This document shows positions 9,224-62,394 of a DNA stretch of 64,000 bases, one piece after another (the first letter of the stretch is position 1; every line of letters starts with the position of its first letter). A program made the position numbers and the translations under genes. Source of the DNA: a virus (lineage: Duplodnaviria; Caudoviricetes); the IMG/VR virus record IMGVR_UViG_3300032123_000052, positions 64,001 to 128,000 of that record; one strand, given 5' to 3'. The notes under the pieces were generated by a model, which saw nothing but the letters and a program-made list of their open reading frames with translations, did not search any database and was not told the DNA's origin.

Positions 9224-12200
9224 TTGCCGTCGATGCCGACAAAAGAACAGAATGTTCTTCGCAGATTATCAGAGATGGAAGCTGATGCAAGAAATAACAC
9301 ATTGATGAACGTTACTGTGGCAGATACGGTAAAGACAATTCTTCATTCGGTTGAAGATGATGATATTAAATTGAGAGTGAATAAGGTATGGATCGATAAA
9401 AAATATGACAATTCCGATATCTCAGCCCAAAAATCAGTAAGAAACAAAGGCAGAATATGGGCAAATGATCTCAGAGCAGATCTTTCAATAATTGACAAAG
9501 CAACCGGCAAAGTGGTTGATAATGTCCCCAGTATTAAAGTTACTACTATTCCAAAAATCACAGACCGTGGAACCTATCTAATAAAAGGTAATGAATATCA
9601 GTTCACAAAACAATCTCGGCTAAAACCGGGAGTATATACCAAACAGCAAGCAAATGGTGAGATCAGCTCTTTTTTTAATGTTGACAAAACAATTGATTTT
9701 GACAGAGGGTTCAACAATAACTTTAAAATAAATTTCATTCCGGAGCGAAAAACTTTTACTATGGGATATGGTAGTAAGAATATCCCTCTTATAAATGCAC
9801 TCAAGGCCGTTGGTGTCACTAGGAATGAGCTTGTAGAACGATGGGGGGAACAGGTCTATGAGGCTAATGCTAAAGCGTATGATAAGCATGAGACCAGAGA
9901 TCAGAACAAATTATATGAGGCAATTTTCGGAAAGCAACCAGATACAGGGTTAAATCCGGAAAATATCAGAAAAGAAATTAAAGAAAGGCTTTTTGACACC
10001 GGGCTCGATTCTGAAACTACAAAAATTACCCTTGGCAAATCATATAAAAATGTAAATAAAGACGCCTTGCTCGATGCGTCAAAAAAGATTATAGATATCC
10101 ATGCTGGAAAGATAGAAGGTGATGATCGTGAAGCCCTTGTGTTCAAATCTTTCTTCGATGTGGAAGATCATATCAGGGAAAAGCTTGTAAAAAATAGTAA
10201 GAAGATTATAAACAACATAAAGTACAAACTTAAGAAAAATAAAACCATTAATAAATCAATCAGCTCACAAGTCTTTGACCCATTCGTTGTCGGCGTCCTC
10301 ACCAACAGCCAGCTTTCAAATCCACCAAACCAGACCAACCTCATGTCTATTATTGGTGAAAGTAATAAATATACTGTTATGGGGGAGGGTGGCATAGGAA
10401 CCTCAAATGCTATTACAAATGAAACGCGCCAGATTTCTAATAGCGAGGCCGGATATTTTGATCCGCTTCATACTCCAGAAGGCCCTGGGATAGGAATTGC
10501 TGTTCACAATACAATGGATGCTGTTAAGGTCGGAACTGATATTTATTCAAAATATCTCACCACTAATGGTGAGAAGATTTTGTTGAAGCCTACAGAAACA
10601 TGGGACAAGAATATAGCATTTCCTGATGAATATGATTTATCAAAGCAAAAACCGAAAGCAAAATCAAGAAAAGTAAAGGTAATTAGAAAAGGTAAGCTCG
10701 CCGAAATGGCAGCTTCAAAGGTTGATGCTATTATTTCAAGCCCAGTCGGACTATTTGACACTTCAGCTAATTCTATACCATTTCTTAATTCTATTCAAGG
10801 GAACCGTGGCCTTACCGCCTCCAAAATGCAGGAACAGGCACTTCCTTTAAAAGATCGGGAAAAACCCTTGTTTAACATTGTTGATGAGAAGGGTAATAGT
10901 ATAAATAAAATTCTTGCAGGATCAATGGCGTTGCCAAAATCTTCTGTTGATGGCGAGGTGACAAAGGTAACATCTGAAAATATAACTGTTACTGATAAAA
11001 ATGGAGAAAAGCATAGGACGCAACTTTATAATAATTTCTCTATGAATGCAGAAAGCTTTTTGCATAATACCCCAGTTGTAAAAGAGGGTGACTCTATTAA
11101 AAAAGGTGGCCTACTTGCTGATAATAATTTTACAAAAAATGGCCAAGTCGCAATTGGTGCGAATCTCAGGACTGCCTATTTGCCATACAAAGGATATAAC
11201 TACGAAGACTCGGCAATTATGTCGGAAAGCGGCGCTAAAAAACTCACATCTGAGCATATGTACGATTTCAAAACCAAGAGATCATCAAAGGGTGTTTTCT
11301 CAAGAGAAAAGTTCAAAGCGTATTATCCGGAAGAGTTGAGCGCAAAACAGGGTCGCAAACTCGATAAGGATGGCGTGGTTAAAATTGATCAAAAGGTCGA
11401 TCGTGATGATGTATTAATTGCTCATATGGAGCATAAACCACCGACGGCAGATGATATTGCGCTTGGGCGTCTTGACAAACAGCTTAAGAGGGACATGTCG
11501 AACAATGCTCTCAAATGGAATAAGGATGTTGTTGGCACCGTTATAAATGTCGAGAAATCGGGGAACAGCGTCGTCGTCAGTGTTAAAACAGATGAGCAGC
11601 TTAAAGTCGCTGATAAGATATCCGGGCTTCATGGCAACAAGCACATTATATCAAAGATAGTTCCAGATAGTGAAATGCCTTTCAACCCTGAGACTGGTAA
11701 GCATATAGAGCTTACCATGAATCCGATCGGTGTATCAAATAGGATTAACACCTCTCAACTTCTTGAAAATGCTGCTGGCAAAATTGCAGCGAAGACCGGT
11801 GAGCAATACAAGATTCACAATTTTTCAGGTGATGACAACTCTAAAAAAATGATGACTGATCTCAAAAAAGCAGGTCTGTCTGATAAAGACATTCTGGTTG
11901 ACCCGGAAACAGGAAAGCCGCTTCTGAACCCTGTTGCCAATGGTGTGTCAAATATACTCAAGCTGGAACATGTTGTAGACCATAAATTTTCTGCACGATA
12001 CAAAGAAGGGTATGATGCAAATGAGCAACCGGTCACCGGGGGCAAGACTGGTGGTAAGAATCTCGGCCGAATGGAAATGTCTGCAATGCTTGCTCGCGGC
12101 GCCAATGAGAATCTTCGTGAGATGTTTGAAATTAAGGGCCAAAAGAATGATGAATTCTGGAGAGCAATGGAGACAGGCCAGAGCTTGCCACCACCGAAAA

Positions 12201-15200
12201 AAGCGTTCGTCTGGGATAAAATGCTTGCCATGATGGCTGGTGCCGGCATCGATGTCGAGCAGAAAGGTAAGACGTTTGCTTTAAGACCAATGACTGATGC
12301 TGAAATTGTTGAGCGATCCCGGGGCGAGTTAAAACGGCCAGATTTGACATATCGAAAGAAAGATCTTGCCCCTATGAAGGAGGGTTTGTTTGATCCGGTT
12401 AAAGCAGGCGGATTGTTCGGAGATCACTACACTCATTTTAAACTTTCAGAAAAGGTGCTCAATCCTATAACTGCACCTGCAGCAGCTGCACTAATTGGCC
12501 TTCCGGTAAGTAAAATGAATGAAGTCATTTCTGGTAAAAAGTTTGTAAATAAAATAACCGGCGAAATTGTTAAACCAGGTGCACAGAGTGCCATATCGGG
12601 AAGTCCTGCAATAGAACTATTGCTTGGGCGAGTAAAGGTTAACAAAGAATTGGCAAATACTCAAGATATGGCAAAACGTATTACTAATCCATCAGAGTTG
12701 AATAAAGCCCATCGTAAGATCCGGTATCTTAAATCGCTTCAAGAAAACAAAATGAAACCTACCGATTATATGGTGTCCAATATGCTTGTAACACCATCGA
12801 AGTATAGGCCGGTTGTTACTATGGGTACAGACAATACGGTCATTCTTTCGGATATAAATGATTTATATCAACAGACATCACGGACAAGCAGTGCGCTTAA
12901 AGACCTTAAGGAACAAACAAAGGGTATTGGAAGTGAAGATATTGAGAACCTTCAGCTTGCTGAAATCAGGGGTGCACTTTATGCTGATGTGAAGGCTGTT
13001 TCCGGCCTTGCAGAGCCAACTTCATATTTACATAGAGTAAGGAATAAAAAAGGATTCATTACTCAGATAGATGGTGGCAAAACGAAACAAACGAAAGAGG
13101 GATTTTTCCAGGATAAGGTTTTGGAGCGTAGGCAGGATCTTGTCGGCAGATCAACTATTATTCTAAATCCGAAGCTTGGTGGTGACGAAATCGGCATTCC
13201 GAAAGATATGGCTAGTCAGATATTTCAGCCATTTATTATGCAGAAAATGGTAAGTTGGGGATATAAACCATTAGAAGCTCAGAAGCATATAAAAGACAAT
13301 AGTCCGATATTTGATAGGGCAAGGCAGGTGGTGGCTGATGAGAGGTTAGTGATAGCGAATCGCGCCCCGAGCCTTCATCGATGGAATATGACGGCATTTA
13401 AGCCGAAGCTAACTGATGGAAAATCTATAGAAGTACCATCTGTTGTAGTAAGTAAAAATTTTGGAGGAGACATAGATGGCGATACGTTCCAAATTCATAC
13501 CCCAGTAGGTAAAAAAGCTTTAAGAGAAGCTGAGACAATGAAACCTTCGGCATCAATGTTGAAAACAGGGTATGATTCTGTGCTTAACACACCAAGTATG
13601 GAGTTGGTAGCTGGTGCGTGGTTGGCGTCTAAAGGTAAAGGTGGTAAGAGTACCGGTTTCAAATTTAAAAACCTTGACGAAGCTAGATACTCTTTTAATA
13701 ACCACCATTTTACTTATGGCGATACCGTTGAGATTAATAGTACCAAAGCACCATTTGGTATACACGAAATAAACTCAGCTGCACCTGATGATGAAAAGCG
13801 TTGGGGTGTCGAACTTAACACTAATAATGTTGAAAGTTGGATAAAAGATGTCACCAAAAAACATAACGGCAAAATTGCTCTCGGTCTCGCTGATAAAATA
13901 AAAAAGGTTGGAGAAAATTATGTTACGCAGTATGGATTTACACTTGGTGTGTCTGACACTATTGTAGATGATTCAATAAGAAAACCAATTATCCAAGAAG
14001 CAAAAGCAAAAGCAATTCCAGGCCATGATGATAGTGTTGTTAGGGCGTATTTACAGGCAAAAGAAAAGGGACAAAAGGCTCTTAAGAAAAAATATGGAGA
14101 GAACACTATGCTCGGCATCGGAATATCTTCCGGAGCCGGAAAAGGAATTGGGAACATGACGGCAATTACATTTATGCCAGGAATAGTAACCGACGCAAAT
14201 GACAGGCCGATTCCAATTCCTATTGAGAAATCCTATTCTGAGGGTCTTGGTACTTTTGATTATTGGGCCGCTGCTCATGGAGCCAGGGGTGGCAATATCA
14301 AGAAATCGGTATCATCATTCAAACCTGGTTGGTTAACAAAAGACTTAATGAACTCGATTTATGATACCAGAATATACAGCGATGACCCTGTTGACACAGA
14401 TGGCCTTGAATATGATGTAAATGATAAAAAGGCTGTAATGAATAGATATCTTGCCCGCGATGTGAAAGATACTGGTGGAAAAATAGTTGCCAAGAGAAAT
14501 GAGCTGGTTGCCAGTGATGTTATCAACAAAATGAATCAGCATAAAATTAAAAAAGCATATATCCAGTCGCCTCTTACTGACCCAAGCCCTGGTGATGGGT
14601 TTTCAAGCTGGTCATATGGAACAGACTACGAGGGTAATAGGCATAATATCGGCGATAACATAGGTGTCATATCCGCACACACGTTGACCGAGCCGTCTCT
14701 TAATCTTGCAATGAAGGCGTTTCATACTGGTGGTGCGCTTGAGGTCGGGAAGAAATCTGCTGGTACTAAATTTGATGTGCTCGATAGAACACTTCGTTTT
14801 ACTAAAAACATCCCGGACAAAGCAACACTTTCCAGCATGGATGGTTTTGTTAAAACGACTTCAAAGTCTCCTATCGGCGGCTGGGACGTTGTTCTATCTA
14901 ATGGCGCGAAAGATGAGTCAAGGTACGTTGATACAAATAACGATCTTCTTGTAAAAAAAGGCGACAAGGTAAGAAGCGGAGACAAAATATCTTCCGGAAC
15001 TACAAGCGCTCATGATATACTTAAATACAAAGGTATGAAAGAAACGCAGAGGTTCCTTGTAAATCAGATAAGCGAAATCAATGAAGGGAAGCTTGACAGA
15101 AGAGATATTGAAACTATTGTGAGAGGCATTACAAACACTACTAGGGTTATTGATCCTGGATCGAGCAATTATACACCACATGATGTTGCACAATTGTCGT

Positions 15201-15571
15201 CAATAGAGTATTATAATAACAACAATGAAAAGGAAGAAGATATCGAGAACGCAGAAGGGGACCATCTTGCCCAGGATTACGGCAGTTATAAAAAACATCA
15301 GAAAATAGATTTCCAGACAATGAACAATCTTGGCAAACAAGGAAATAAACGTATAAAAGTTTTTAAAGATAGAATTAAACACGAGCCATTCCTGACTCCA
15401 GCAGGTATCAGTGCAAAAGCTCAATCTTCAGAGGATTGGGTTGCGCGACTTGCTCACAATCGGATAAAGAAAGTTCTGGAAGAGGGTACGACCCAGGGAT
15501 GGAAAACCACGATTGACCCTATAAGGGGCCATCCCATTCCGGCCTATGTGACAGGAGAATACTCATGGTAG
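9224..15571 (+). CDS. rpoBC: Single-chain DNA-directed RNA polymerase, fused beta and beta' (ATG at 9233 likely start)
   Basis: beta motifs TPEGPGIG, KMQEQALPL, GYNYEDS, DKISGLHGNK, MNPIGVSNRIN, GGKNLGRME; beta' motifs RRQDLVGRSTI, NRAPSLHR, catalytic GGDIDGD (DIDGD at 13469-13483), AAHGARGG, trigger loop TEPSLNLAMKAFHTGG; junction near 12265. Confidence 0.95.
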   Translation: MPSMPTKEQNVLRRLSEMEADARNNTLMNVTVADTVKTILHSVEDDDIKLRVNKVWIDKKYDNSDISAQKSVRNKGRIWANDLRADLSIIDKATGKVVDNVPSIKVTTIPKITDRGTYLIKGNEYQFTKQSRLKPGVYTKQQANGEISSFFNVDKTIDFDRGFNNNFKINFIPERKTFTMGYGSKNIPLINALKAVGVTRNELVERWGEQVYEANAKAYDKHETRDQNKLYEAIFGKQPDTGLNPENIRKEIKERLFDTGLDSETTKITLGKSYKNVNKDALLDASKKIIDIHAGKIEGDDREALVFKSFFDVEDHIREKLVKNSKKIINNIKYKLKKNKTINKSISSQVFDPFVVGVLTNSQLSNPPNQTNLMSIIGESNKYTVMGEGGIGTSNAITNETRQISNSEAGYFDPLHTPEGPGIGIAVHNTMDAVKVGTDIYSKYLTTNGEKILLKPTETWDKNIAFPDEYDLSKQKPKAKSRKVKVIRKGKLAEMAASKVDAIISSPVGLFDTSANSIPFLNSIQGNRGLTASKMQEQALPLKDREKPLFNIVDEKGNSINKILAGSMALPKSSVDGEVTKVTSENITVTDKNGEKHRTQLYNNFSMNAESFLHNTPVVKEGDSIKKGGLLADNNFTKNGQVAIGANLRTAYLPYKGYNYEDSAIMSESGAKKLTSEHMYDFKTKRSSKGVFSREKFKAYYPEELSAKQGRKLDKDGVVKIDQKVDRDDVLIAHMEHKPPTADDIALGRLDKQLKRDMSNNALKWNKDVVGTVINVEKSGNSVVVSVKTDEQLKVADKISGLHGNKHIISKIVPDSEMPFNPETGKHIELTMNPIGVSNRINTSQLLENAAGKIAAKTGEQYKIHNFSGDDNSKKMMTDLKKAGLSDKDILVDPETGKPLLNPVANGVSNILKLEHVVDHKFSARYKEGYDANEQPVTGGKTGGKNLGRMEMSAMLARGANENLREMFEIKGQKNDEFWRAMETGQSLPPPKKAFVWDKMLAMMAGAGIDVEQKGKTFALRPMTDAEIVERSRGELKRPDLTYRKKDLAPMKEGLFDPVKAGGLFGDHYTHFKLSEKVLNPITAPAAAALIGLPVSKMNEVISGKKFVNKITGEIVKPGAQSAISGSPAIELLLGRVKVNKELANTQDMAKRITNPSELNKAHRKIRYLKSLQENKMKPTDYMVSNMLVTPSKYRPVVTMGTDNTVILSDINDLYQQTSRTSSALKDLKEQTKGIGSEDIENLQLAEIRGALYADVKAVSGLAEPTSYLHRVRNKKGFITQIDGGKTKQTKEGFFQDKVLERRQDLVGRSTIILNPKLGGDEIGIPKDMASQIFQPFIMQKMVSWGYKPLEAQKHIKDNSPIFDRARQVVADERLVIANRAPSLHRWNMTAFKPKLTDGKSIEVPSVVVSKNFGGDIDGDTFQIHTPVGKKALREAETMKPSASMLKTGYDSVLNTPSMELVAGAWLASKGKGGKSTGFKFKNLDEARYSFNNHHFTYGDTVEINSTKAPFGIHEINSAAPDDEKRWGVELNTNNVESWIKDVTKKHNGKIALGLADKIKKVGENYVTQYGFTLGVSDTIVDDSIRKPIIQEAKAKAIPGHDDSVVRAYLQAKEKGQKALKKKYGENTMLGIGISSGAGKGIGNMTAITFMPGIVTDANDRPIPIPIEKSYSEGLGTFDYWAAAHGARGGNIKKSVSSFKPGWLTKDLMNSIYDTRIYSDDPVDTDGLEYDVNDKKAVMNRYLARDVKDTGGKIVAKRNELVASDVINKMNQHKIKKAYIQSPLTDPSPGDGFSSWSYGTDYEGNRHNIGDNIGVISAHTLTEPSLNLAMKAFHTGGALEVGKKSAGTKFDVLDRTLRFTKNIPDKATLSSMDGFVKTTSKSPIGGWDVVLSNGAKDESRYVDTNNDLLVKKGDKVRSGDKISSGTTSAHDILKYKGMKETQRFLVNQISEINEGKLDRRDIETIVRGITNTTRVIDPGSSNYTPHDVAQLSSIEYYNNNNEKEEDIENAEGDHLAQDYGSYKKHQKIDFQTMNNLGKQGNKRIKVFKDRIKHEPFLTPAGISAKAQSSEDWVARLAHNRIKKVLEEGTTQGWKTTIDPIRGHPIPAYVTGEYSW

Positions 15572-17461: not shown

Positions 17462-17561
17462 AATATTCTCCTTTTATGTTATAATTAATAGTATCATAGC
17501 AGTTATACCATATTATTTGGTTTTTTAACATGAGGAATTTATATTTCTTATGGAGGTATAA

Positions 17562-18665
17562 ATGGCTTGGCCCACAACAAAATCCATTCCCGAGTGGGGA
17601 AAGCGAGATACTGACCCTAAAACTGTTGGTGCAGTTGCAGGGGCTGGTGTTTTTGGTGCAACTCACATTGATTTAAGACCAAAAGTTGATATTAAAAAAG
17701 CTCCATATCTTGGTGAAACATGGGAATCTGCCAAAAAACATATTAAGCCTGGTGACATACTTGTTGGTGGAACAAAAACAGCTCCACAAGCATATGTTAG
17801 TGAATTAAAAGATTTTAGAAAAATATTTAAACGAGCAAGAGCTCAAGGAAAGTCTATAAAAGACGCTGTTAATATAGCCAGAAAACGGGTTGATATAGCA
17901 AGTTTGGCTTCTAAACTAGGCGAACCCACCCTTTCTCATACTGCTGTTTTTGCAACCCCTACAAAAACAGCTTATGGCGGCGGCTGGTATCAGCATGCAT
18001 CTGAAGATATCCCATTAAATAGAAGAGCGCTTGGTATAGAAAGAAGAGCCCATAGGACATCTCATTATGTCATTATGAGACCAAGGGAAGGGATGAGTCC
18101 TTTAAGAGAGATTTATCGCAGGCAAGGTGCTCGAAAAGCAGTTGCCCAAGCAGGTAGAATGGCTGGAGAGGCAAAGGATTATAAAACACTTGGGAGTATT
18201 AAAGAAACTATGCTTGATTGGTTAACACCAAAACTTAGAAGCACTGAAAGAATAAAAAGTAGGGCTTTAAGAGCGGCAGAAATGTGTACTCCTGGAGGGT
18301 GGTGCTCAGTTACCGGCGCCCTCGGAACTGAAAAAACAATAGGTGGTAAGGTTGGAACAAAAGTTCTACCAAAAGATTATTTAAGATCTCATGGCTTTAG
18401 AGTTGTTGGTAAAATTGGAAAAGGACATATGACTTTAGCCCAAAAAGCATTGTTTGCTGCTCCAAGATTAGCTGTAAGAGGAGTGGTGGCCGGTGCGGTC
18501 GGTGTTGGTGCTTATCATACTGCTAAAATGTTTCAAAAAAGAAATCTTACTAGAAGTCTAAAAAATCAACCATTTGAAATAGAAAAAAAATCAGCATATG
18601 AAGAAGCCTACCAGGCGGCATTTAATGATGAGTTAGAAAAAATATCAGGTTGTAAATCTCATTAG
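17562..18665 (+). CDS. Permuted papain-like NlpC/P60 (YiiX/YaeF-like) protein with C-terminal hydrophobic helix and DELEKIS tag
   Basis: KPGDILV ... SHTAVF (His first) ... WCS (Cys last) ... LPKDY order; GGAGG RBS. Confidence 0.65.
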   Translation: MAWPTTKSIPEWGKRDTDPKTVGAVAGAGVFGATHIDLRPKVDIKKAPYLGETWESAKKHIKPGDILVGGTKTAPQAYVSELKDFRKIFKRARAQGKSIKDAVNIARKRVDIASLASKLGEPTLSHTAVFATPTKTAYGGGWYQHASEDIPLNRRALGIERRAHRTSHYVIMRPREGMSPLREIYRRQGARKAVAQAGRMAGEAKDYKTLGSIKETMLDWLTPKLRSTERIKSRALRAAEMCTPGGWCSVTGALGTEKTIGGKVGTKVLPKDYLRSHGFRVVGKIGKGHMTLAQKALFAAPRLAVRGVVAGAVGVGAYHTAKMFQKRNLTRSLKNQPFEIEKKSAYEEAYQAAFNDELEKISGCKSH

Positions 18666-24495: not shown

Positions 24496-24525
24496 AAAAA
24501 AAACTCTCAGGTCGAGTGAGAGTTT
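24496..24525 (-). terminator. Intrinsic terminator closing the RT operon
   Basis: AAACTCTCA/TGAGAGTTT stem (24501-24525); A8 at 24496-24503 reads as a U-tract on the minus strand. Confidence 0.75.
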
Positions 24526-24527
24526 CC

Positions 24528-24771
24528 AATTAACTTATCGTGGAACAGAACCTGACTGGGGTCGGGGGCCAGGCGGGTACTCACATAGCCTGGCCCGCAC
24601 AGATCCGTTGTGGCGTGCACGGCGGATCTGTGACCAGGCGGGAAATTGAATATGCTTCCCACTTTTATCGCCCATGCGAAAAAAGTTGGGATAGCCGTCC
24701 CCGCATTACACACCCTCCGAGGCGAATCGCCCCAGATGAGAGATCAATCTCTCCTTTCACGATAGTTAATT
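24528..24771 (-). ncRNA. Retron-like msr/msd non-coding RNA candidate
   Basis: Inverted repeat 24528-24545/24755-24771; internal stems 24566-24596, 24598-24632, 24657-24691, 24719-24733, 24738-24753; downstream of RT and RNase H, ending 2 nt before a terminator. Confidence 0.7.
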
Positions 24772-24945
24772 ATTTTTATTTTCCGGCAGCTTCTCTTTCT
24801 TGGAGAATATGCTTTTTATGCCGACAATAAATTTAATTGTTTGTGGAAAAATACTCTTCACAAATGATGAAGTAAAATCAACAACAAGGTTGAACTTCGC
24901 TATTATGGCACTGTGTTGCTTGTTGCCACCGCTTTTTTTTTCCAT
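24766..24945 (-). CDS. 59-aa amphipathic peptide (not in the ORF track)
   Basis: AGGAG RBS; MEKKSGGNKQHSAIIAKFNLVVDFTSSFVKSIFPQTIKFIVGIKSIFSKKEKLPENKNN*; stop lies inside the 5' arm of the ncRNA inverted repeat. Confidence 0.6.
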   Translation of the reverse strand: MEKKSGGNKQHSAIIAKFNLVVDFTSSFVKSIFPQTIKFIVGIKSIFSKKEKLPENKNN

Positions 24946-24953
24946 TATTTCTC

Positions 24954-25457
24954 CTATGGAATGGGTTGACCAGCTTTCTTTGCCTGTTTAATTTGATCTT
25001 GAGCTATACCATCAGCCATATTATTAAACTGGCTTCGAGCATGTCCCTTAACCCAATTAAACCGGAATGCTTTAAATTCGGGTGTTAAAGCATCAAGCAT
25101 TTTCCATAAGGAAATATTAAGAACCGGCTTGCCGTTGGATTTTCTCCAACCATTCCCTTTCCATGTAGGAAGATATTCATCATAGTTGTCTGATACATAT
25201 TTAGAATCAGGCCTTATAATACAAGTGTGGTTTTTAGCCTCACCATATTCAGAGTCTAAAAGTTTTTTTAAAGCCTTCATTCCTTGAATAGCAGCTAATA
25301 ATTCCATTTGATTGTTTGTAACGTTGATCCGGTAGCCGCCCCCACGACGCAATATATTATCTCCGGCATTAATTATTACATAACCATACCCACCAGGACA
25401 GTTAGCACCCCTTTGATTTCCAGAGCATCCGCCGTCGGTGTATATCGTGAATTTCAC
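24954..25457 (-). CDS. rnhA: Ribonuclease HI
   Basis: YTDGGC, TNNQMEL, PDSKYV, WVKGH, NNMADGIA: all four acidic catalytic residues present. Confidence 0.95.
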   Translation of the reverse strand: MKFTIYTDGGCSGNQRGANCPGGYGYVIINAGDNILRRGGGYRINVTNNQMELLAAIQGMKALKKLLDSEYGEAKNHTCIIRPDSKYVSDNYDEYLPTWKGNGWRKSNGKPVLNISLWKMLDALTPEFKAFRFNWVKGHARSQFNNMADGIAQDQIKQAKKAGQPIP

Positions 25458-25493
25458 TATTATTTTATCCCTTTTTAGTTAGGTGAAAGATTC

Positions 25494-26564
25494 TTACTTA
25501 CAAAACTCAATAAGTTTAAACTTCTTATTTTCAAATGCAAGAAGTTGCTTCATATACTTTTTACCCTTATCACGATCTATAGACATCAAGAATGACGCCC
25601 ATCCCTTTAGTTTTCTCAAATCACTTTTAGTTGTTTTGTCTGCGTGCTTTACAGTAGCATGGTGCACTTCAGCTCTGAATTTATGCACATCTCTGCGCTG
25701 CACTGACTTTTTAACATTAACTACTACACCGCATATTTTCAGGCGGCCGGCATTTGACTTCCATATTGTTTTCTTTTTATTCGGCGTAAACCCATATGCC
25801 CATAAAAGCTGATATGCTTTCTGTTTTATTTCTTTTTTCAGTTCAAATTTGCTCAATGTTTTACTGCTGAATGCGAGGTCGTCGGCATAACGAGTATACG
25901 CTATATCGGAAGAAGCACAATGTTTTTTCATAGATTGGTCGAACCCACGCATTACTATGTTTGCCAACATAGGAGAGGTTGGGAACCCTTGCGCAGTATA
26001 ACCCTCAAAGGTACACAGTTCTATTATCCTGTTGAATAAAGAAATGTAACCTGTTTCTCTACAATATTCAGGAATATACACTGCTTTGATTTCTTCACAT
26101 CTGAAATCACAATTTTTTGTTTTATTATAATAGAGCGATGGATGACACCTTCCATCTAGCATTCGTTCATAGCGCTTGCAATATCGACAGATGTGTTTAT
26201 TTCCGAAGATGCAATTTTTGAGATGGTCGGTTGATATAGAGTCAAAAAAATCTTTAATATCAATTTTACCAAGACTTTTTGCGCCAACATGCAGCTCCGC
26301 ATTTGTTACAATGCCTTTCTTTGCAACAAATCCATGAGCTGCCGCGTCGGCTTTATATCTTCTGAACACGCGCCAGTAGATACTTTTTTGGATGTATTTT
26401 AATCGGGCGTCTGGGGCTATAATATTTCTTTTACCCCCGCTCTTCTTTGGGATTGAGATGCGTTCAATATGCTCATTCTTAGCAGCGATTATCGCATCAA
26501 CTTCTTCTAGGTCGGCACCTAAAACCTGTTTAATGTCAAAGTTGGATACCTCAGCTTTGAACAT
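25494..26564 (-). CDS. Retron-family reverse transcriptase with Cys-rich insertion (start revised to ATG 26564)
   Basis: RNIIAP, AAHGF, region X NAELH (NAxxH), IDIKDFFDSI, QGFPTSP, YTRYADD, region Y ICGVVVN (VTG variant). Confidence 0.9.
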   Translation of the reverse strand: MFKAEVSNFDIKQVLGADLEEVDAIIAAKNEHIERISIPKKSGGKRNIIAPDARLKYIQKSIYWRVFRRYKADAAAHGFVAKKGIVTNAELHVGAKSLGKIDIKDFFDSISTDHLKNCIFGNKHICRYCKRYERMLDGRCHPSLYYNKTKNCDFRCEEIKAVYIPEYCRETGYISLFNRIIELCTFEGYTAQGFPTSPMLANIVMRGFDQSMKKHCASSDIAYTRYADDLAFSSKTLSKFELKKEIKQKAYQLLWAYGFTPNKKKTIWKSNAGRLKICGVVVNVKKSVQRRDVHKFRAEVHHATVKHADKTTKSDLRKLKGWASFLMSIDRDKGKKYMKQLLAFENKKFKLIEFCK

Positions 26565-27663
26565 CCTCTGTTGAACCCCCTTCCTCTTCTGATGTGACTT
26601 TTTCACGGGCCTCATCTTTTGTTTTAGCTTCACCCGTTTTAATTAATTCATCGGCCTTTTTCTCGACGCCATCTTCCGAATCGACTCCGTATTTTTCCAT
26701 ACTGTCCTCCGGACCATTCAATTGAACACACATATCATCAATGAATCTTTCGACTTCTTTTTCAAGAAATATAGCGCCACCAACTGTCGGATGGCCGCCG
26801 CCACTAATTGGATAATCCAATGCTTGAAGCACTTTCCCAATATGGACTTTGCACGATTCTTTTTGCCATTTATTAAACCCAACATCGGCATGAACCCTAT
26901 TACCACCAAGGTGCACAATTCGAACTGAGTACATCAAATCTGGTTTAATAAGATATTCAGAATATCTTGGGTATGCATACAACCGATTCATTTCAGTAAC
27001 GCCCATAGCACCATTGATAATCATATTCCTCTCAATCGCATGTGCTGAATTTTTTAATTCATCTACAACATGACAATCGACCCCAAGCGTGAATAGGACT
27101 TTATTGATATCAAAATTGTACAGATTGATTAATTCGACCAGCCTGTTATAAGTTGAATCGACAAATATTGAAAGGTGTTCAAGATATGCTTTCAATATCA
27201 TCAGTGGTTCTGTGCTTGAGAATATATAATCGATAGTTTTATATCCGGCACTATCGATCATATCAACCATGTCGACAACATGTTGGTCAACCGCGCCTTT
27301 TAAAAATGGAGTATTTTGAAACCAATTGTATATTACTCTCGCTGCAGATTTAACATTGGGGTTGTAGAAAATCTTTCCGTTATGAACCTCATTGTCTTTC
27401 AAATCTTGGCTGAAATGATGATCAACCCACAGGTCCGCTTTTTCATGGTGTTGATAATCAACAATCACAAGCGATTCGTTATCGGTAATTCTTGTTTTAT
27501 ACACATCTTCGATCAGCGCATTAAACTTATCACCCCTCATTGATGATTTTGCCGGATAAAGCCGATAAACATGGCCACGAAAGAATGCATTCATTATCAT
27601 TGCTGCCGAAACAATTCCGTCAACATCATCATGATAAAAAAGGTGAACTATTTTATGCTTCAT
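26551..27663 (-). CDS. DHH/DHHA1-family phosphoesterase (NrnA/exopolyphosphatase-like) with charged C-terminal tail
   Basis: HDDVDG, VIVD, WVDHH, SAARV, DMIDS, GGGHPTVGG; AAGGAG RBS; 14-bp overlap with the RT start. Confidence 0.8.
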   Translation of the reverse strand: MKHKIVHLFYHDDVDGIVSAAMIMNAFFRGHVYRLYPAKSSMRGDKFNALIEDVYKTRITDNESLVIVDYQHHEKADLWVDHHFSQDLKDNEVHNGKIFYNPNVKSAARVIYNWFQNTPFLKGAVDQHVVDMVDMIDSAGYKTIDYIFSSTEPLMILKAYLEHLSIFVDSTYNRLVELINLYNFDINKVLFTLGVDCHVVDELKNSAHAIERNMIINGAMGVTEMNRLYAYPRYSEYLIKPDLMYSVRIVHLGGNRVHADVGFNKWQKESCKVHIGKVLQALDYPISGGGHPTVGGAIFLEKEVERFIDDMCVQLNGPEDSMEKYGVDSEDGVEKKADELIKTGEAKTKDEAREKVTSEEEGGSTEDVQS

Positions 27664-27686
27664 CTACACTCCTTTAATAAGTGGAT

Positions 27687-27712
27687 AAAAAAAAGATCGG
27701 TTTTCACCGACC
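27687..27712 (-). terminator. Intrinsic terminator directly upstream of the DHH-RT operon
   Basis: Minus strand GGTCGGT-GAAA-ACCGATC followed by T8. Confidence 0.75.
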
Positions 27713-49800: not shown

Positions 49801-52800
49801 GCTTCAAAATTCGATGAAACTACTGCATATCCTATTGCCTCTGCTGATTCTGGTTCAACTGCCGTTGCAAGAGTTGGGGCTGATGGCGATACCCTTGAAA
49901 CTCTTTCTGATCAGATTGATGGCGTGCAGACAAGTGTTGACGGTATTCAGAATAATACGAAATTTGTTGCTACAGTTCCAACCAACATGCTGATACCTGA
50001 CTCCGGCGACACGATGTACAAAATTACTGCTCACTTTTATGATTCAGATGGCAATATGGAAGATCCTGACAACGACGAAATTAATATCCTTTATGAAGAT
50101 GTGTCAGGCGCTGATAAAGACGCATTTTTCGACGATGCAGGCGGGTCAACTGGCGCAACTGCTGGCGTAATAGATGTGAATATGTGGCAGATGGTAAGGG
50201 CCAGTACAGGTGTTTATGAGTCATATTATAAACTTCCTAATACCGAGACGCCGGAACAATGGACCGCTTCATTTAAGCTTGAGGAGGCGTCTTCGTTGCT
50301 TAATTATTCTCGCAGCACGAATGTTGTCGAAGAGGCCCCTGGCTCGACCACACTGGCTGACAATACGGTGAATAAAGATATTATCGCCGAAGCCCTGAAA
50401 GAACGTGATGTGTCTGGTGCTGGGGCGGTGTCTGGTTCTATTTACCAAGACATAAATGATAATATCGACACGAATGAAACTAAGATTGACACAATATACA
50501 CAGAAGTTGGTTTAATTAAAACTGCAACAGACGCACTGCCTAATGCTGGGGCCCTGACAGACATCGACACTGGCATTAATAACATTGAGGCGAAACTTCC
50601 AAGTAAATCATATATCGCAGGCACAGCCAATCCTGATGGTGATATCCAACTCGATGAAGCAACTGGTGCTCTTGTAGTTGGTGCTTATGCCAATCATCCT
50701 GATGTCGATTTAAACGCTAATCAAAGCGGTGTGACCGTAGGAACAGTTAATGCTCTTGGTACTCAAGCAAAAGCTGATGTACAAGCAGAATGTGATTCTG
50801 CGATTACAGCAAACACCGATATTAACAATATTGACACCGGCGTTAACAACATCGAAACCAAATTGCCATCAAAGTCATATCTCGCAGGAACGGCAAACTC
50901 AGATGGTGATGTTCAGCTTGATGAAGCAACTGGGGCATTGCCAGCCGGTGCATTTACAAATCATCCTGATGTTGATTTGAATGCTGATCAAAGTGCTATC
51001 ACAATTGGGATTGTAAATGCTCTTGGGGCACAAGCAAAATTAGACGTTAATGCCGAAGCCGATATAGCTCTATCAGATATCGGATTAGACCATTTGATTC
51101 AGGTTGCGGTGGCCGGAACTGACGTTACTGACAATTCGATTATAGCACAAATAGTATCAAAGTCGGCAACAGCTGATTGGGACACCTTTGATAATACAAC
51201 AGATGCACTTGAAGCAATTTCTGATTCTGGTGGCGGTGGACTTACAGCGCAGCAGGTTAGAGACGCTATGAAGCTTGCTCCTACGGTTGGAGCGCCAGAT
51301 GTTGGGTCGGTTGACAATCATTTAGATGATATTCAAGCTGTAACAGACAATCTTCCAAACAGCGGTTCTTTAACCGACATTGATACTGGTGTGAATAATA
51401 TCGAAGCGAAACTTCCAACTAATTATATTATGGGATCGTCTGTGCAGACAGACAAAGACGATGAAATCGATTCGATTAAATCAACTGTTGAAGGCTTAAA
51501 CGACCTGTCTGCAGCCCAAGTAAATGCTGAGGTTGACACTGCGTTATCAGATATCCGTCTTGACGAGCTTATGACATCCGCTATTGCAAGCCAGCCGGTT
51601 GCCGGATCAATATTTGCAGACCTGACTGAGGATGATGGTGGAACCCAGAGATTCAACGCCAACGCCCTTGAGCAGGCGCCAACCGGTGGAACCAATCCAA
51701 ATGTTCTGATTGATACAACAATCAACGTCGTTACAGATCAAACTCATTTTACACTTAACTCAGGATCAAACGATGATGATGCTTATAAAAACCAGGCATT
51801 TGTCGTATATGATGCGAGCGATAGTGACTCCCCGTCTATAAGAGTATGTGCTGGTTACGTTGGTTCTACAAGAACTGTAACTCTTGATTCCGCTCCAGAT
51901 TTTACAATCATAAGTGGCGATGGGGCCAAAGCTTTTGTAACCGCTCCTGGAACATCGGCACCAACTGTTGGTCAAATACGGACTGAGATGGATGACAATT
52001 CGACCAAGCTTATCGCTATTGACACTGGTGTTGATAACATTGAGCTAAAACTGCCAACCAATTATATCATGGGATCAAGCGCTCAAACTGATAAGGATGA
52101 TGAAATCGACGCAATTAAGGCGGTTACTGACTTGCTGCCGAACTCTGGGGCGCTTACTGATATTGATACCGGTATAAATGCTATTGAGGCGAAATTGCCT
52201 ACTGATTATATCATGGGATCATCTGTACAAACAGCCAAAGATGATGAAATCGATTCTATCAAATCTACCGTTGAAGGTTTGAATAACCTGTCTGCTGCTG
52301 AAGTAAATGCAGAAGTAGACACCGCACTGTCTGATATTGGATTGGACCACTTGGTGCAAGTTGCTGTCGCCGGAACAGATATCGTAGACAATTCGATTAT
52401 AGCACAAATTGTATCAAAGAGCGCTACTGCTGACTGGGATACATTTGATAATACGACAGACTCTCTTGAGGCTAATACTGATTCATTGTCTATGGTTGAT
52501 GGAAAAGTTGATACTATAGATACTGTAGTAGATGCGATTAAGGTTGTTGCTGACTTGCTTCCGAATGGTGGAGCGCTTACCGATATTGATACCGGTGTAA
52601 ATAACACAGAAGCGAAGCTACCAACAAATTATATCATGGGGTCTTCTGTGCAGTCTGGAAAAGACGATGAAATAGATTCTATCAAATCAACAGTTGAAGG
52701 TTTGAATGATTTGTCTTCAGTTAATGTGCAGGCTGCTTGTGACGCCGCAATAACGGCCAATACTGATATCAATGATATTGATACTGGTGTTAATAATATA

Positions 52801-59582: not shown

Positions 59583-59604
59583 TTGAGAAATTCTTCTAAT
59601 AGCT

Positions 59605-59639
59605 AAAAAAAAAGAGAGCTGATTTCTGCTCTCTTTTTT
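59605..59639. terminator. Bidirectional intrinsic terminator
   Basis: A9-GAGAGC-loop-GCTCTC-T5. Confidence 0.8.
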
Positions 59640-61859: not shown

Positions 61860-62300
61860 ATTGTTTAAGATGAGTTTAGTACTCATGTTATATAGGGAAG
61901 TGTGGAGATTGCTCCCCACACCCCCTTTGCAGTATACGATTCTAGCTGCAACTTACCATTGAGTAATAAAAAGGACTTTTATTTCCCAAGAGCCTTCAAT
62001 TATCGCTGAAGCGGCGATGGAACTTAGAACCATACTTGGAAAAGATTTCTCAAACTAAAGTTCGAGGAGTTCGGCGAGGTTATCGTTCCGCTGGGTTCTT
62101 ACGGCAGCATACGAGACCTGGCATCGAGATCCACGATCGCAACACTTCCCGAGCCGGTCGAGCCGACCACCACCTTATACGAGTCGCGCTTTGATTTACT
62201 CCAGTAAATCAGCGACCAAACCAAGATGTTGACCTTGCAGGTCAACGTCATTGGTTCTGAGTATAAGGTGGTATGAGTAAACGATGTTGAAACAACACCG
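61860..62300. ncRNA. Candidate large structured non-coding RNA
   Basis: 12-bp stem 62169-62180/62261-62272 enclosing hairpins 62192-62211 and 62225-62249; several smaller stems at 61870-62040; no ORF in the track. Confidence 0.45.
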
Positions 62301-62394
62301 CGTTCATATCCTTTGAGAAAAAAGGGGTAAAGAAAATAATTAACCCATTCACCATAATAGTTATTTCAAATTTGTATAAAAAATAACATCAGTA

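Follow-up and report, generated by a model that had tools for sequence, protein, structure and literature searches.

A retron-type reverse transcriptase encoded with RNase HI and an NrnA-like DHH protein in a clade of large phages, and a set of candidate template RNAs

Retrons are known as bacterial anti-phage systems that consist of one reverse transcriptase (RT), one template RNA and a toxic effector. The locus described here raises the question of whether a virus can own a member of this family. It lies in a 64,000-nucleotide (nt) stretch of DNA, hereafter the window, which comprises bases 64001 to 128000 of a single 208,085-bp virus contig (IMG/VR record IMGVR_UViG_3300032123_000052) from a marine sediment metagenome. 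On the minus strand, between window positions 24496 and 27712, genes for a DHH-family protein, an RT, an RNase HI and a small protein are followed by a structured RNA, and a sequence-only reading had interpreted this module as a phage-encoded, retron-like operon. We consider it probable, with considerable room for doubt, that the module is a virus-owned member of the retron family in which the RT is combined with its own RNase HI, an NrnA-like DHH enzyme and many templates, and that it forms a core block of its phage clade. Positions given below are those of the window unless the genome is named.

The RT gene (25494 to 26564, counted from its ATG, minus strand) encodes 356 amino acids (aa). 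Its product matched the Pfam family RVT_1 at 70.4 bits, and its 25 best of 64 matches in PADLOC were all to retron RT models, at 140 to 214 bits, with no clear winner among the leaders (XIII, 214; III-A, 205; Ec107-like, 190; II-A, 188 bits). In NCBIfam, the retron_St85 model scored 207 bits, which is below its cut-off of 235, against 59 bits for the group II model and about 46 bits for Drt2 and Drt3a. A search of the PDB with a profile built from 16 members of the RT family returned the Ec86 RT first (1.4e-37), followed by Kva2, Ec83, Ec78, Ec67 and Eco8. In support of this, ranks 1 to 17 of a Foldseek search with the AlphaFold2 model (predicted local distance difference test [pLDDT] of 79) were all retron RTs. 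The signatures of these enzymes are NAxxH in region X and VTG in region Y, of which the G is the most conserved (PMC7736814). The phage protein carries NAELH, YADD and ICGVVVN, which are conserved in 16 relatives; YADD, N88 and H92 of NAxxH, and C278-G279 of ICG, which occupies the VTG position with V and T replaced, are invariant in the 16 sequences. Both the retron type of the enzyme and its NAxxH and VTG-like ICG motifs had been claimed in the sequence-only reading and are borne out here. Collectively, the profile, PDB-sequence and fold matches, rather than an explicit reference tree, assign the predicted protein to the retron or retron-like RT clade, and its conserved motifs show a retron-type RT that should be catalytically intact.

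One feature sets this RT apart. Between DIKDFFDSI, which contains the first catalytic Asp, and QGFPTSP (QGxxxSP), the protein has an insertion of approximately 50 residues (about 120 to 170; 26050 to 26205) with four invariant cysteines, C126 and C129 (CxxC), C140 and C156, an arrangement absent from all solved retron RTs. Because all retron profiles split into two stretches at that point, the insertion marks this clade, and it is probably a zinc-binding module. As for another origin of the gene, a group II intron was rejected on the bit scores given above and on the lack of any Rfam match in the window.

The next question was whether the RNA beside the RT resembles a retron template. A G+C-rich tract free of open reading frames (ORFs) at 24772 to 24527 (minus strand) folds with a minimum free energy of −110 kcal/mol (z = −5.66 against 200 shuffles) and is closed by a 15-bp terminal stem. 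Two hairpins stand at its 5′ side (24754 to 24738, and 24733 to 24719 with an AUU loop), with a variable core behind them. We aligned the window RNA with those of seven relatives (8 sequences in all) whose RTs are 62 to 85% identical to that of the window or whose DHH protein is only 28% identical. Three helices covary, namely, the closing stem, a GGAGAGA hairpin and a second hairpin with a three-base loop; over 23 pairs, 91.8% of the cells are paired, and compensatory double changes occur at 16 of the 23. None of 500 shuffles matched any of these measures, and slid controls paired at 35 to 52%. The closing stem invariably has A-U and A-U as its two innermost pairs, and a G always precedes the 3′ arm; at the other arm, this genome has one extra A ahead of the first G, the candidate branching residue. 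Just before the 3′ arm, the tract CCCCGACCCCAG..GGUUCUGUUCC (approximately 24569 to 24543) is near-invariant, with CCCGACCCCAR found in 12 of 15 relatives. The structured RNA that had been claimed for the 3′ end of the operon is thus supported by both folding and covariation, and with its closing inverted repeats and msr hairpins it has the layout of a retron noncoding RNA (ncRNA).

This RNA is not alone. We searched for a unit pattern that consists of an 8- to 9-nt arm (a1) ending in AA, a G, 6 to 10 nt, a 6- to 9-bp hairpin, one or two long hairpins, UUUAG and the complementary second arm (a2); the variable cores preclude the usable MAFFT alignment that a covariance model would need, and therefore the dispersed units were examined by pattern search with shuffled controls. 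The script found seven units in the genome, all on the RT strand, at three loci located 25 to 37 kb from the RT. Four form a tandem array in a 1-kb ORF-free tract (genome positions 64400 to 63396, minus strand), of which the first unit occupies window positions 400 to 84 and the rest extends approximately 600 nt before the window start. All four are orthologous in the sister phage G001, whose RT is 85% identical and which has a fifth unit there. A tandem pair (59973 to 59812 and 59809 to 59641, minus strand) is followed by a terminator and has an orthologous pair at positions 51686 to 52091 of G001. The solitary unit (62046 to 62320, minus strand), with a1 ending in AA, the G, a UUU-loop hairpin, long hairpins and UUUAG-a2, likewise has an orthologue in G001. 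In all seven units, G stands straight after a1 and AG straight before a2; the folds show closed ends and a single msr hairpin, whose UUU or AUU loop is closed by G-C, followed by one or two long hairpins.

Several lines of evidence for these units are independent of the pairing that the search demanded: their excess over shuffles, their strand bias, the UUUAG context, their intergenic and tandem placement, and orthology. A strict version of the pattern gave 0 hits on the plus and 6 on the minus strand of this genome (G000), whereas 100 shuffles of it averaged 0.26 hits and never exceeded 2. The plus- and minus-strand counts were 7 and 0 in G001, 0 and 6 in G002, 1 and 1 in G003, and 0 and 7 in G004, and every strict-pattern unit of G000, G001, G002 and G004 lies on the RT strand. 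Orthologous units of this phage and G001 have scaffolds that are 73 to 94% identical and cores that, at 46 to 72% identity, resemble each other no more than shuffled sequence does (57%); the msr hairpin covaries, as in the change from CCGACG/CGUCGG to CUGGUG/CGCCAG. The units agree with the definition of retron ncRNAs by terminal inverted repeats, one to three msr hairpins and a long msd stem-loop (PMC7736814), and their 6- to 9-bp hairpin with a UUU or AUU loop is comparable to the 8-bp stem with a UUU loop that is bound by region Y of the Ec86 RT (PMC6868368).

In classical terms, one msr-msd lies upstream of its RT, adjoins it and is cotranscribed with it; here, the nearest RNA lies 3′ of the RT, RNase H and small ORF. 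The sequence-only reading had described this as a reversed RNA position, which proved too narrow a description, as seven further and more canonical units stand at three other loci. Since these units exist, the reading of the RNAs shifts to one RT acting in trans on many templates, which is most likely how the enzyme works. A BLAST search of all eight RNA units against five clade genomes revealed no second copy of any core and, therefore, neither a target of the kind used by diversity-generating retroelements nor an antisense target in the phage. On the same grounds, and with no template/variable repeat pair, a diversity-generating retroelement was rejected. Rfam, searched at gathering and permissive thresholds over the window and the array, gave only chance matches of microRNA hairpins on the array.

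Some further observations on the units can be added. Two units of G001 (17481 to 17678 and 114901 to 115101) share an identical arm and msr hairpin, and therefore units can duplicate and move within a genome. The G+C content of clade members ranges from 28% to 40% with the module kept (G003 and G004 compared); the genome with 28% G+C, where a different consensus may apply, yields only 2 strict-pattern units. At the head of a minus-strand block (genome positions 48000 to 64500) stands the four-unit array; the block encodes a 690-aa protein with RNase T and PD-(D/E)XK nuclease domains, a 598-aa SNF2 helicase and an Rv2179c-like 3′-5′ exoribonuclease. Farther along, those ORFs that were scanned with Pfam had no match.

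The partner genes of the RT were then compared with known protein families. The 167-aa RNase HI (24954 to 25457, minus strand) matched Pfam RNase_H (PF00075) at 94.6 bits, and in an alignment with E. coli RNase HI every catalytic residue (D, E, D, H and D) is conserved, in line with the earlier claim of an intact enzyme. It is the only RNase HI gene of the 208-kb genome (a single PF00075 match). The 370-aa DHH/DHHA1 phosphoesterase ORF (26551 to 27663, minus strand) gave a marginal match to Pfam DHH (28.2 bits); however, its AlphaFold2 model (pLDDT of 91.7) has a two-domain DHH/DHHA1 fold that contains DHH motifs I to IV and the DHHA1 GGGH motif, as in NrnA/PggH-type proteins. The residues H11, D13, D15, D69, D81-H82-H83, D137 and G289-G290-H291 are near-invariant in 36 family members. 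Foldseek ranked PggH first (7d62, 6e-16), followed by the GdpP catalytic domain, PAP phosphatase and NrnA, with RecJ-type nucleases lower. By sequence and fold, the protein is thus predicted to be an NrnA/PggH-like nanoRNase or dinucleotide phosphodiesterase and resembles RecJ-type nucleases less. Of the proposed "DHH nuclease," the family assignment stands, and the label nuclease gives way to nanoRNase-like, which fits better. This protein also has a conserved, acidic, helical C-terminal extension (residues approximately 320 to 370; 26551 to 26700; consensus MEKYxVD...), which NrnA and PggH lack and which could be a docking tail. A predicted complex of the RT and the DHH protein scored 0.30 against a mark of 0.32, a value that weighs neither way.

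The small ORF (24766 to 24945, minus strand; 59 aa) had been listed as a peptide gene; ORFs of 45 to 76 aa occupy that position in all relatives examined. Their alignment shows weak conservation with the shared motif FNxxVDxxSSFxKxIFP. The ORF had no match in Pfam, PHROG or PADLOC, and none of the PADLOC effector models matched the DHH protein, the RNase HI or the small ORF.

The layout of the module agrees with the tight, co-oriented packing, the two bounding terminators and the phage ownership described in the sequence-only reading. All four ORFs lie on the minus strand, with exactly the spacing reported: the DHH and RT genes overlap by 14 bp, 36 bp separate the RT from the RNase HI gene, and 8 bp separate the latter from the small ORF. 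At the 5′ side, the module is bounded by an intrinsic terminator (27687 to 27712, minus strand), identified by the terminator scan as a 7-bp stem with 4 GC pairs at 27712 to 27695 and a T-run, which ends the upstream genes for 218- and 83-aa proteins. The terminator that ends the module (24496 to 24525, minus strand), a 9-bp perfect inverted repeat followed by T8, was not listed by the scanner; it is visible in the sequence and kept in relatives. Just past the module, on the opposite strand, lies a large terminase gene; the module is owned by a virus and has an RNase HI of its own.

Is the module a fixed part of such phages? It is carried by a clade of uncultured phages of 130 to 210 kb, and the RT family comprises more than 120 clusters at at least 56% identity, many of them on contigs of 100 to 190 kb. 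Among 50,697 phage records, a DNA search with the module found no match, and a protein search found relatives only at less than 30% identity. The order DHH-RT-RNase H-small ORF was kept in every gene context read. Through a neighbouring gene that encodes a 349-aa protein, we fetched 31 loci, 18 of which had enough upstream sequence to be assessed; in all 18, the DHH, RT and RNase H genes share one order and orientation, at identities as low as 38% (RT) and 26% (DHH), so that the proposed check of gene-order conservation found the genes syntenic in relatives. The five further clade records that were searched, including three complete genomes, contain exactly one RT each. In every relative, the ORFs overlap or abut (DHH/RT by 14 to 56 bp; RT/RNase H by 1 to 4 bp in several), which suggests translational coupling and coexpression. 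Taken together, the comparison of predicted genes indicates that the block is a vertically inherited core feature of the phage clade and not a mobile island.

How might such a module work? In the mechanism that we propose, the C-terminal region of the RT would bind the short msr hairpin, which every unit has and whose three-base loop is U-rich, and the enzyme would prime synthesis from the 2′-OH of the G right after the a1 arm. It would then copy the long hairpin region, which ends at the conserved UAG just before a2. The phage RNase HI would strip the copied RNA strand, which in E. coli retrons is the task of the host enzyme, and the DHH enzyme would degrade the short RNA oligonucleotides left over or otherwise trim the product. 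A role of RNase H in making multicopy single-stranded DNA (msDNA) is established for retrons (PMC6868368). The outcome would be approximately eight different small single-stranded hairpin DNAs from one RT, one made in cis and seven in trans; we infer every step that follows the folding of the RNA.

Several points weigh against this proposal. The synthesis of msDNA is itself deduced from architecture. The branching G of the RT-adjacent RNA cannot be fixed, as an additional A separates the stem from the first G in some relatives, and the conserved tract is absent from the three deepest relatives; in the distant relative L037, the place of this RNA is taken by a 150-nt spacer that lacks the tract. 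The pairing of arms and hairpins in the dispersed units does not count as independent evidence, because the search required it. Moreover, the sole RNase HI of the genome could simply be a replication enzyme, for the DHH phosphodiesterases of jumbo phages the destruction of cyclic-nucleotide defence signals has been proposed (PMC7824862), a function that would need no RT, and synteny extends over the entire neighbourhood, so that a preserved gene order is in itself no proof that the RT, the DHH protein and RNase HI are functionally linked.

The last three points lead to the alternative that survives best, although we regard it as unlikely. It holds that only the RT and the RNAs constitute a retron, that the RNase HI is a replication enzyme acting on Okazaki primers and the DHH protein a general phosphodiesterase, and that the genes share an operon by chance. 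The DHH protein would then act on nanoRNA or on cyclic or linear dinucleotides, either in nucleotide salvage or in the destruction of signals of the cyclic-oligonucleotide-based antiphage signaling system (CBASS) or type III CRISPR systems. Such roles agree with the nearest DHH structures, PggH, GdpP and NrnA, which act on pGpG, cyclic dinucleotides (c-di-NMPs) and nanoRNA, as well as with the counter-signalling proposed for the jumbo-phage enzymes, and linkage within a syntenic neighbourhood could be historical. Furthermore, the more distant retron-type RTs of the phages L003 and L004 (34% and 26% identical, respectively) have no DHH or RNase H gene beside them, for which reason these two phages were left out of the comparison of modules. 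Against a chance association stand, however, the overlapping and abutting ORFs, which suggest translational coupling, and a trio that is contiguous in 18 of 18 relatives while the DHH protein has diverged to 25 to 29% identity. The DHH family at E < 1e-30 (37 clusters) shares its length and its C-terminal tail, and all seven members whose context was read, that of the window included, adjoin an ORF in the RT position, which is an RT where identifiable.

A second alternative would make the module a phage-borne defence retron for superinfection exclusion, in which a complex of the RT and msDNA restrains an effector until a rival phage disturbs it; the effector could be the DHH enzyme, the small protein or the nucleases beside the RNA arrays. 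All characterized retrons act in this manner, and several reside on prophages, such as phiR73 and the elements that carry Ec67 and Ec86 (PMC6868368). The hypervariable msd cores would fit an arms race, and the four-unit array heads the block with the RNase T and PD-(D/E)XK nuclease and the SNF2 helicase. On the other hand, no protein of the module matches a PADLOC effector model, an NrnA-like enzyme is no obvious toxin, and in known retrons each RT has a single ncRNA. Cargo for defence tends to be patchy and to lie in variable islands, whereas this block is fixed in every assessable relative, and a fixed core status fits accessory anti-defence or exclusion cargo less well. We therefore consider this explanation improbable. 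Still more improbable is a module that makes no stable msDNA, with the structured RNAs acting as RT-independent small RNAs or as RT scaffolds with little or no DNA, as reported for type VI retrons: a preprint reports retrons with little msDNA (10.1101/2025.10.22.683967) and no Rfam model covers these RNAs, but 16 diverse members all retain the catalytic YADD, every dispersed unit has the a1-G ... AG-a2 layout and a hairpin of the RT-binding type, and a neighbouring RNase HI makes sense only if RNA:DNA hybrids are formed.

If the virus-owned, multi-template retron that we favour is compared with known systems, both its kinship and its distinctness become apparent. With the classical retrons (Ec86/Eco1, Ec78/Eco7, Ec83 and Ec67/Eco2; types I to XIII, PMC7736814), it shares the RT family, fold and signature motifs, and its RNAs share the terminal inverted repeats, one or two msr hairpins, of which one has a U-rich loop of three bases, and a long msd-type hairpin; the seven dispersed units also have the G where a1 ends on its inner side, and the presumed need of the product for RNase H is a further likeness. 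In contrast to classical retrons, the phage module is a core gene set of a lytic-looking jumbo phage, its nearest RNA lies downstream of the RT with seven more in trans, the known effectors are replaced by an RNase HI of its own and an NrnA-like DHH enzyme, and its RT carries the four-cysteine insertion and matches no single PADLOC type model best. The effectors of types I to XIII include ATPase/HNH, Toprim, nucleoside deoxyribosyltransferase, phosphoribosyltransferase, two-transmembrane, DUF3800, HEPN, protease, TIR, SWIM and other proteins (PMC7736814). The module could be assigned to none of these types, as it has no effector match and its RT scores nearly equally with several type models and below the St85 cut-off.

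Partial precedents exist for individual features. The prophage retrons (Ec73 in phiR73; Ec67 and Ec86 in 186-like prophages; PMC6868368) likewise lie within phage genomes, but they are passenger cassettes of standard msr-msd/RT/effector composition, patchily distributed among temperate E. coli elements, whereas the block described here is fixed in its clade and differs in composition. In type VII retrons, as in the phage module, the RT is tied to a protein with an RNase H fold (a DUF3800 partner or fusion; PMC7736814); DUF3800, however, resembles RNase H2, has a DEED site and counts as the effector, while the phage partner is a canonical RNase HI (PF00075). Retron-Nex1 (Ne160) of Nannocystis exedens resembles the phage units in that repeated msr-msd copies in one genome stand against one RT (PMC6868368). 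Those copies are read as duplicated or retrotransposed repeats, whereas the phage units are distinct, orthologous between phages and hypervariable in their cores. Engineered retron arrays (10.1101/2023.07.17.549397) place several units on one transcript with one RT, but they are man-made, in contrast to the natural tandem arrays of the phage. Finally, a 2024 metagenomic survey (PMC13681634) recognized retron-like RTs in viral contigs as clades RTC3 and RTC5; its accessible part remains at survey level and describes no gene partners, RNAs or clade-level conservation.

Our literature search found no published description of a DHH-RT-RNase HI module and no paper that links retrons to DHH or NrnA enzymes. 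On retrons encoded by viruses or phages, it returned only the survey of viral retron-like RTs and one review that mentions a prophage-encoded retron, and for natural tandem multi-template retrons in phages it returned none, the copies of Retron-Nex1 being the precedent noted (PMC6868368).

What the module would mean for the phage depends on the DNAs that it may make. The chemistry of retrons appears here on the virus side, in a module fixed in a deep clade of large phages that has its own enzymes for template removal and a natural repertoire of multiple templates. Because sister phages share the scaffolds but have unrelated template cores, the small DNAs may meet a fast-evolving partner, such as a factor of the host or of a competitor, at an interface of conflict, and because the block is a fixed core, its function may be needed in every infection. 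A possible but doubtful extension is that the small DNAs are obligatory in the infection cycle of the clade. They would be made from a genome-encoded library of approximately eight templates, the natural tandem arrays included, and their hypervariable cores would target quickly changing factors of the host or of rivals, for instance by decoying defences of the DNA-sensing or retron type or by mimicking the msDNA antitoxins of the host. If this tentative extension were true, a virus would here be seen for the first time to turn retron chemistry to offence. Should the DNAs be made at all, they would represent a new class of phage function exerted through small DNAs, whether in counter-defence, regulation or replication; the system would also offer a natural precedent for the multiplexed retron arrays now engineered for genome editing, and a compact RT able to act in trans on modular scaffolds. 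With its conserved elements (a1 ending in AA, the G, the UUU-loop hairpin and UAG before a2), the scaffold makes the hypothesis directly testable in vitro.

A few observations concern the surroundings of the module. A search of sequencing runs found the stretch only in assembled contigs of marine sediment metagenomes, two of which may be the source sample, with no RNA run among them. A tRNA scan of the window found none; in the sister phage G001, the locus has approximately 110 nt of extra sequence right after the module terminator (L001:8085-8165), including the T-arm-like GGTTCGAGTCC, and this segment might be a tRNA or tRNA-like gene absent from the genome studied here. In phage L004 (4770 to 9688), the retron-type RT with 26% identity lies between a ThiF/E1 gene and a gene for an SNF2 helicase; together with the SNF2 gene near the array, this context hints at a wider link of phage retrons with SNF2 and ubiquitin-like (Ubl) systems. 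The window also contains an ORF of 2115 aa at 9224 to 15571. If the phage relies on an RNA polymerase of its own, scans for sigma-70-type promoters reveal little about the transcription of the module. Lastly, the 11-mer TTTTTAGCTAT follows terminators at 24496 to 24505, that of the module, and at 59600 to 59612, as well as at five other places in the genome. Its 7 occurrences compare with 0.45 expected, and it recurs in four sister genomes and, in relatives, behind the module terminator; it may be a clade-specific transcription signal.

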